Positions 6,924 to 7,799 of a DNA stretch of 64,000 nt are shown here, one piece after another. Both the position numbers and the translations under genes were made by a program. Every line of letters begins with the position of its first letter. The first letter of the stretch is position 1. Under the pieces are notes generated by a model, which was given only the letters and a program-made list of their open reading frames with translations, made no database searches and had not been told where the DNA came from. The stretch is from assembly GCF_056746865.1 (NCBI RefSeq), contig NZ_CM163382.1. The stretch is one strand, 5' to 3'.

Positions 6924-7499
6924 ATGACTATAGCCGCAGCTTGGGTAAGAACTTTAAGAAATTGCAAAGAATTGATTGTAGTATCAGATAGTAGATTAAA
7001 TGGTGGTATGAAAATGGATTGTGGGCAGAAGATAATAACTCTGCCTCGTTCAGATGCTTTCATATGTTTCGCAGGTGATACTAGTTGGGCATATCCTTTG
7101 ATGCATCAAGTGGCATCAGCAATTGATATATATGATCGTTGCTCCTCACGAGCCCAAGATATTAAAGAACTCAAAACCCATATTCTTAAAATTTTTGAAC
7201 GACTGAGAGAGCAAATTCACGATGCCATAGGTGACATGGATATACCCGATGCAAAATTCATATTCGGGGGATATTCATGGATAAGAAAAAAATTCATGAT
7301 TTGGCACATCACCTACCAAAAGAGTACCAACTCTTTTCGTGCGGATCCTGCACGTGAAATATATGGATCACCTGTTGTATTTACTGGTGATGAAGAACAT
7401 GTAATTGTAGCTAATGCTATGCTTCGTGAAAAATTAAAATCAAGAGGGAAGCTGGATAATTTAGAAAAAGGCATGAAAAATACTGTTAAATTTGAATGA
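6924..7499 (+). CDS. Hypothetical protein ending at an in-frame TGA (see the next feature)
   Basis: ORF-track frame 6873-7499; start placed at ATG 6924 after AAGGA SD; AT-rich. Confidence 0.5.
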   Translation: MTIAAAWVRTLRNCKELIVVSDSRLNGGMKMDCGQKIITLPRSDAFICFAGDTSWAYPLMHQVASAIDIYDRCSSRAQDIKELKTHILKIFERLREQIHDAIGDMDIPDAKFIFGGYSWIRKKFMIWHITYQKSTNSFRADPAREIYGSPVVFTGDEEHVIVANAMLREKLKSRGKLDNLEKGMKNTVKFE

Positions 7500-7523
7500 G
7501 AACCATTTGAAGTTATTCGAGAC

Positions 7524-7799
7524 ATGTTTTACAAAGTTAATGAAAGTTCTTATGAATTTAAAAACTCATCAATTGGAGGCGCGCCCCAAATCCTAAAAAT
7601 CTATGAACATTTATCAAGTCAAAAACTTGGTGTTCTGTGGAAGAACAGGATGGATAGTGAACCGAACATATATTTATCTGGCCGGAGGCTTACTAATTAT
7701 GGTCCGCGAGATATGTGGATACTAGACCCTGAAAAACTGATAACGTACAATCCATTGAAAAGTAATCCTGATAAGGAGGTAATTAATCAATTCATTTAA
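7524..7799 (+). CDS. Hypothetical ORF in the same frame as 6924-7499, separated only by TGA 7497-7499; likely the downstream part of one gene (nonsense mutation or readthrough)
   Basis: Frame continuity counted from coordinates; no SD before ATG 7524. Confidence 0.3.
   Translation: MFYKVNESSYEFKNSSIGGAPQILKIYEHLSSQKLGVLWKNRMDSEPNIYLSGRRLTNYGPRDMWILDPEKLITYNPLKSNPDKEVINQFI

Follow-up and report, generated by a model that had tools for sequence, protein, structure and literature searches.

The divergent prokaryotic homologues of the proteasome have been sorted by Fuchs, Alva and Lupas (2021) into 22 orphan subfamilies for which no informative genomic context was found (PMC8665760). Members of these subfamilies keep the active site formed by Thr, Asp, Lys and Gly, and no propeptide or function has been recognised for them (PMC8665760). 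Some of them are termed PMI, for “proteasome homolog with multiple insertions”, and PMI-2 to PMI-6 carry H3/H4 insertions (PMC8665760).

Here, a 64,000-nt stretch of an E. coli chromosome (NZ_CM163382.1; hereafter the window) was analysed with respect to the interrupted reading frame at positions 6924-7799. This gene is very probably a pseudogene that was generated by a TGG-to-TGA nonsense mutation and lies in a decaying part of a defence island. The ancestral gene is a member of a widespread, wholly uncharacterised proteasome-like family whose intact copies are found repeatedly among anti-phage genes.

Two Open Reading Frames Represent a Single Disrupted Gene

In a preliminary description of the locus, two open reading frames had been reported to lie in the same frame, parted only by a TGA, and had been proposed to form together one gene of ~290 aa. 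Translation of positions 6873-7799 in one frame bore out the first claim, revealing one internal stop in the context aaatttgaa TGA gaaccattt as the sole interruption between 6924-7496 and 7500-7799. The ORF listing gave 6873-7499 and 7524-7799; the first of these reaches an upstream ATG at 6873, which is also taken as the start by one Klebsiella annotation. Judged from the sequence, ATG 6924 is the true start, since homologues begin with MTIAAAW and an AAGGA motif precedes this codon by 7 nt. The second ORF opens with ATG 7524, and the eight codons between the TGA and this ATG (EPFEVIRD) are all sense codons in the same frame. As stated earlier, no good Shine-Dalgarno sequence was present ahead of ATG 7524. 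RefSeq annotates the 191-aa ORF as a hypothetical protein without a pseudogene flag, and the 91-aa ORF is also annotated in some records.

A search of the protein collection with the two halves joined into a 291-aa query (X at the stop) retrieved 388 homologues. The homologues (>380) cover both halves in one protein of about 270-315 aa, and the best of them are 291 aa long and match the joined query over 100% of its length (E = 3e-187). Therefore, the two halves belong to one gene, far beyond chance, and the proposed length of ~290 aa was correct: the orthologues are uninterrupted proteins of 291 aa. Two alignments were built, one of 24 sequences and one of 77 sequences (A2; 76 homologues and the query with W substituted for the stop). 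In both alignments, every homologue (all 76 in A2) passes the stop position as a single chain, so that none ends where the first ORF ends. Column 192 of A2 holds W in 41 sequences (one being the query with its substituted W), M in 28, L in 5 and F in 3, and contains no Cys, stop or chain end. Trp occupies this column in every close relative.

A sense codon at the position of the TGA, which the preliminary description had proposed to look for in orthologues, was present. Codon 192 reads TGG (Trp) in five orthologue DNAs, namely a metagenome copy (L005), a 90%-identical copy (L006) and the copies from K. pneumoniae (L018), Mangrovibacter (L022) and K. quasipneumoniae (L021), whereas it reads TGA in the window alone. 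A single G-to-A transition at position 7499 therefore accounts for the stop. The residues directly following column 192 (Glu193, the invariant Pro194, Phe195 and Glu196) make up the motif with the highest conservation in the C-terminal half, and the invariant Pro194, Gly219 and Gln222 are lost from the truncated product. Moreover, residue 202 is Leu in 73 of the 77 sequences of A2, and Phe in the window.

A separate observation concerns the 90%-identical copy L006. There the gene caller predicted 261 aa (8001-8786, protein P0003), while the ORF comprises 291 codons from an upstream MTIAAAW start. In this allele, Asp replaces the nearly invariant Tyr117 (GGDSW versus GGYSW), and given this exchange it may be impaired as well.

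The Ancestral Protein Resembles Proteasome Beta Subunits

The structure of the full-length protein was modelled with AlphaFold2 from 77 sequences (pLDDT 89.9, pTM 0.89). The model consists of four strands, two helices, four strands, two helices and terminal strands, in this order. A Foldseek comparison with the PDB retrieved proteasome beta subunits (E = 3e-9), on which the predicted structure can be superposed as an alpha-beta-beta-alpha Ntn sandwich. When the sequence profile was compared with the PDB, HslV was the top match at a marginal E = 0.04. Profile and hhalign alignments placed Asp22, Lys36 and Gly51 on Asp17, Lys33 and the glycine of the FAG motif of HslV, respectively.

The putative catalytic residues are conserved throughout A2. 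Thr is found at position 2 in all 72 sequences that have a residue there, Asp22 in 75 of 75, and Lys36 and Gly51 in 77 of 77 each. Exactly one residue, the initial Met, precedes Thr2 in 69 of the 77 sequences, so that removal of this Met would expose Thr2 as the N-terminal nucleophile. The predicted fold together with the invariant active-site residues therefore identifies the family as a proteasome-like Ntn hydrolase without propeptide, and intact members are probably catalytically competent. In the model, the stop at residue 192 falls within the H3/H4 insertion, just ahead of helix H4 (193-207) and of the strands at 222-275.

Three members (two close relatives and one distant) gave no match to the family models of Pfam, NCBIfam, PADLOC v2 or PHROGs. 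Full-length relatives with a TM score of about 0.8 were found in AFDB50 across many bacterial phyla, all of them named “Uncharacterized protein”. The family is spread over Proteobacteria, Firmicutes, Actinobacteria, Bacteroidetes, Planctomycetes and spirochaetes.

The Stop Is Fixed in E. coli and Is Accompanied by Further Lesions

The 1.4-kb region was present in 128 of 5,426 complete E. coli genomes, in every one at ≥99% identity. A 61-mer centred on the TGA had exact matches in 127 complete E. coli genomes. This test discriminates, since in a control query one mismatch sufficed to push a match below the band of ≥99% identity. A sequencing error as the source of the TGA was ruled out by the exact recurrence of the 61-mer in 127 independent complete genomes. 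The TGA is present in each of the 127 complete E. coli genomes that have the gene, and TGG at codon 192 was found in no complete E. coli genome among the 5,426 searched. In a collection of 15 billion proteins, the 191-aa and the 91-aa fragments were each found on at least 1,000 contigs bearing the name E. coli, and those members of the same 90% cluster that are intact (291 aa) came from K. pneumoniae and Mangrovibacter.

Additional lesions were detected among these copies. A second nonsense mutation, Q97* (C7212T, which turns Gln97 into TAA), occurs in 4 of the 127 genomes. In strain EECO1006, one of the 127, an IS1 is inserted at ~7475 and the match to the 61-mer comprises bases 8-61 only. 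The sole further SNP seen among the E. coli copies is a missense mutation, R72C, in one strain.

The closest allele, that of K. quasipneumoniae L021, lies in the same island and differs from the window at only 3 of 876 nt. Its codon 192 is TGG, its codon 202 is CTT (Leu), and the third difference is a 1-nt deletion of its own within an A-run. It follows that W192* and L202F are specific to E. coli. The deletion causes a -1 frameshift that is independent of the TGA, and hence this island lineage has seen at least two independent inactivations of the gene. The flanks of the gene in the window and in the Klebsiella copy differ at 7 of 1741 nt, and the gene shows no excess of changes over them; loss of constraint is therefore claimed, not selection for loss. 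Compared with the nearest intact alleles, pN/pS was low in both halves (0.26 upstream and 0.20 downstream of the stop), but these values are based on too few substitutions, only two of which are E. coli-specific, to discriminate between a live and a dead gene.

Taken together, Q97*, the IS1 insertion, the frameshift in L021 and the exchange of a near-invariant Leu by L202F are signs of absent constraint. The following counts against a pseudogene: the frame 3' of the TGA is still fully open over 99 codons, and the TGA is fixed in every E. coli carrier instead of being polymorphic with TGG.

The Gene Resides in a Defence Island Next to ypjA

The features of the locus are compiled in Table 1. The region adjoins the ypjA/EhaD autotransporter gene, and the presence of a PD-T7-5 homologue and of a DS-11 gene just upstream defines the locus as a defence island next to ypjA. 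An ileY-like tRNA gene and the argQZYV-serV tRNA cluster are located further along the window. In the arg/ser cluster, ARAGORN additionally reported a plus-strand tRNA-Arg(tcg) at 51737-51808 that overlaps a minus-strand tRNA-Arg(acg) and is probably a mirror-image artefact.

Table 1. Coordinates of the disrupted gene and of neighbouring features in the window.
Feature	Position	Strand	Remarks
PD-T7-5 homologue, apparently intact	1844-2866	+	PADLOC E = 8e-102
DS-11 CBS-domain anti-phage protein, apparently intact	3197-4294	-	NCBIfam 405 bits, cut-off 260
Tyrosine recombinase gene, two pieces	about 4648-4888 and 6197-6564	-	Split by IS629-like element
IS629-like (IS3-family) element	4889-6196		1,308 bp
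Candidate invertible element	6619-6773		14-bp perfect inverted repeats GGCTGTGTGAAAAC / GTTTTCACACAGCC around 127 bp; arms 6619-6632 / 6760-6773
Segment with gene and convergent partner	6774-8504		1.73 kb; 96-97% identity to K. pneumoniae and Mangrovibacter
Shine-Dalgarno-like AAGGA	6912-6916	+	7 nt before ATG 6924; read from sequence
N-terminal 191 codons of disrupted gene	6924-7496	+	RefSeq “hypothetical protein” WP_000150283.1; Thr2, Asp22, Lys36 and Gly51 present
Premature stop TGA, codon 192	7497-7499	+	TGG (Trp) in Klebsiella, Mangrovibacter and metagenome orthologues; G-to-A at 7499
C-terminal 99 codons (predicted untranslated) and original TAA	7500-7799	+	EPFE motif, helix H4 (193-207), last core beta strands (222-275)
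Codon 202 TTT (Phe), second E. coli-specific change	7527-7529	+	Leu (CTT) in nearest Klebsiella allele
Convergent partner remnant	7968-8504	-	223 aa in K. pneumoniae; N-terminal 45 aa lost at 8504; frameshift and in-frame stop

The left breakpoint of the homologous segment is sharp and lies exactly after the right arm of the inverted repeat; three loci have three different left flanks. From these limits of homology and the differing left flanks it is concluded that the gene travels in a 1.73-kb segment together with its convergent partner. This partner accompanies the closest relatives only. Its remnant in the window is represented in RefSeq by a “hypothetical protein” of 109 aa, and the intact 223-aa protein had no NCBIfam or PADLOC match.

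The upstream tyrosine recombinase gene is interrupted by the IS629-like element in the window strain, whereas strain M7424 and K. quasipneumoniae have an intact copy encoding 200 aa. Like the disrupted gene, its neighbourhood is in decay, as seen from the truncated and frameshifted partner and from this split recombinase gene. The recombinase gave weak NCBIfam matches to Xer recombinases and tyrosine-type DNA invertases. Between this gene and the pseudogene lies the candidate invertible element; its position directly upstream of the gene had been described accurately, and the 14-bp repeat proved to be perfect. Among complete E. coli genomes, a synthetic inverted form of the element had no match covering ≥80% of its length, and a promoter scan found no sigma-70-like promoter inside it.

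The start codon of the recombinase gene is overlapped by a perfect 15-bp hairpin at 6561-6599 (CATACTCAAATCTCC, 9 nt, GGAGATTTGAGTATG). When this region was searched as part of a 321-nt query, partial matches were obtained in 845 E. coli records, which implies that copies related to the recombinase 5' region are widespread.

Intact Copies Repeatedly Lie Among Anti-Phage Genes

The surroundings of the homologous loci were compared. Intact copies adjoin AbiH (L005, L018-L020), AIPR and PIN genes (L011, L012), a Gabija-like pair of OLD nuclease and UvrD (L022), or HNH/methylase genes and toxin-antitoxin arrays (L015). The copy of L006 adjoins a type I R-M system and a Ser/Thr kinase. In Aeromonas (L009, L013), the intact copy stands alone between housekeeping genes. 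A conserved operon partner was rejected, as the neighbours differ in every distinct context examined.

This pattern is suggestive of an accessory gene of defence islands. The location of the intact copies indicates that the family possibly plays a role in phage defence or abortive infection, acting as a stand-alone protease. A literature search for a proteasome-like defence protein yielded nothing relevant.

Origin and Consequences of the Premature Stop

The results are best explained by the following course of events. The ancestor was a single gene whose 291 codons specified a proteasome-beta-like N-terminal-nucleophile (Thr) hydrolase. In the lineage that E. coli carries, a single G-to-A transition converted the TGG codon of the conserved Trp192 into TGA, and translation is since expected to end after residue 191. 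The resulting 191-aa product would be devoid of the E-P-F-E motif, of helix H4 and of the last strands of the alpha-beta-beta-alpha sandwich. Because of the loss of these elements, the product is expected to be misfolded and inactive, and the predicted structure thus argues for a loss of function. The 91-codon ORF at 7524-7799 is a by-product of the frame that has stayed open, and not an independent gene.

A broader reading sees in the intact family an undescribed single-gene effector of anti-phage defence or abortive infection, built on a proteasome-like Thr protease and spreading as a small cassette. Spread as a small cassette would explain the copies beside AbiH, AIPR, Gabija-like, type I R-M, PD-T7-5 and DS-11 genes. 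If the enzyme were costly, its repeated knock-out would follow, by a nonsense mutation in E. coli and by a frameshift in Klebsiella. In E. coli, traces of active enzyme could nonetheless arise by UGA-to-Trp leakage. We regard this extended reading as unlikely.

Leakage through the TGA bears also on the idea that the stop itself is functional. According to this idea, the UGA is kept as an attenuator that holds a potentially toxic protease at a very low dose, near-cognate decoding by Trp-tRNATrp giving a few percent of full-length and essentially wild-type protease. In reporters of E. coli K-12, UGA is indeed read as Trp at ~2% (37 °C) to 4% (25 °C) by Trp-tRNATrp competing with RF2 (PMC10570021). 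Since this tRNA reads UGA in K-12, a basal leak would restore exactly the ancestral residue, and it is physically plausible that full-length protein is made in small amounts, bearing the ancestral Trp but also L202F. The intact downstream frame and the fixation of the TGA in 127 of 127 carriers also agree with a functional stop. However, identity among the E. coli copies exceeds 99.9% over 1.4 kb, so that a single recent ancestor can suffice to account for the fixation. A stop at this site is found in no other family member: the TGA is confined to the near-clonal E. coli allele, and nothing about it is conserved among orthologues. The second nonsense mutation, the IS1 insertion and the missense mutation in E. 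coli as well as the frameshift in Klebsiella point to absent constraint, and the nearly invariant Leu202 is replaced in the E. coli allele, too. Likewise, no stimulatory structure was found 3' of the TGA, the RNA fold of the 96 nt around and downstream of it being no better than that of shuffled sequences (z = +0.26). A suppressor tRNA in the window was rejected, as none (nor a Sec tRNA) was found among its 7 tRNAs. The stop is followed by G, and Poole, Brown and Tate are said to have found in 1995 that a G at the +4 position does not make the leakiest context in E. coli. Natural isolates of E. coli possess an RF2 that is more efficient than that of K-12. A functional leaky stop is thus improbable; UGA-to-Trp leakage is to be expected of every TGG-to-TGA mutation, and there is no sign of selection on it at this locus.

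It would be more surprising still if the two ORFs were real genes, with the 191-aa protein (and perhaps a re-initiated 91-aa protein) functioning alone or as a split enzyme. Both ORFs have been annotated, the shorter one in some records, and the N-terminal part retains the active-site Thr, Asp, Lys and Gly. Against this stand the 76 homologues, which are all single chains, and the absence of a Shine-Dalgarno sequence ahead of the 91-aa ORF. The latter also lacks residues 192-200, including the invariant Pro194 and the conserved Glu193, Phe195 and Glu196. Furthermore, the cut removes helix H4 and strands of the core sandwich from the N-terminal ORF, which in four strains is cut further at residue 97.

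Selenocysteine recoding, in which a bacterial SECIS hairpin just downstream would direct insertion of Sec at the UGA, has only the identity of the stop and its in-frame position in its favour and is effectively refuted, with a practically negligible probability: homologues have W, M, L or F at this position and never Cys or Sec, the position lies in a structural helix-capping region of the predicted structure and not at a redox site, the sole structure near the TGA is a weak 5-bp AU-rich hairpin, and Rfam gave no match in 6400-8700 at E ≤ 1. The SECIS-like hairpin that the preliminary description had suggested to look for is accordingly absent. Of its two readings of the TGA, a nonsense mutation is upheld by the TGG codons of the orthologues and the further lesions, while a leaky or recoded UGA finds no support in view of the lack of Cys or a stop in orthologues and of any 3' structure.

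Comparison With Known Systems

With respect to the TGA, the finding is an ordinary one, a plain inactivating mutation and not a recoding event. Ordinary nonsense pseudogenes in decaying islands display the same one-step change from sense to stop, an intact downstream frame, secondary lesions, IS insertions and degraded neighbours. Nothing essential is different here, where RefSeq calls the fragment a hypothetical protein. The RefSeq entries of 191 aa and 91 aa, which are found on thousands of E. coli contigs, should be merged and flagged as one pseudogene, and an intact allele from Klebsiella or Mangrovibacter, such as K. pneumoniae WP_372692530.1 or Mangrovibacter WP_084172319.1, rather than the E. 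coli one, is the sensible start for a functional study.

The family itself differs from the proteasome-like hydrolases of the T1 group (proteasome beta subunits, HslV, Anbu and BPH) in several respects. The likeness in sequence is marginal, as seen from the E value for HslV and from the lack of a Pfam T1 match. The proteins of the family are longer (~290 aa), have an H3-H4 insertion and an extra C-terminal beta region, and are encoded without an adjacent AAA+ partner by a solitary accessory gene in variable islands. Among the subfamilies of Fuchs, Alva and Lupas, PMI-4 and PMI-2 have a listed phylum spread that resembles that of the present family (PMC8665760). Neighbourhoods in defence islands, as found here, were not described for those subfamilies (PMC8665760).
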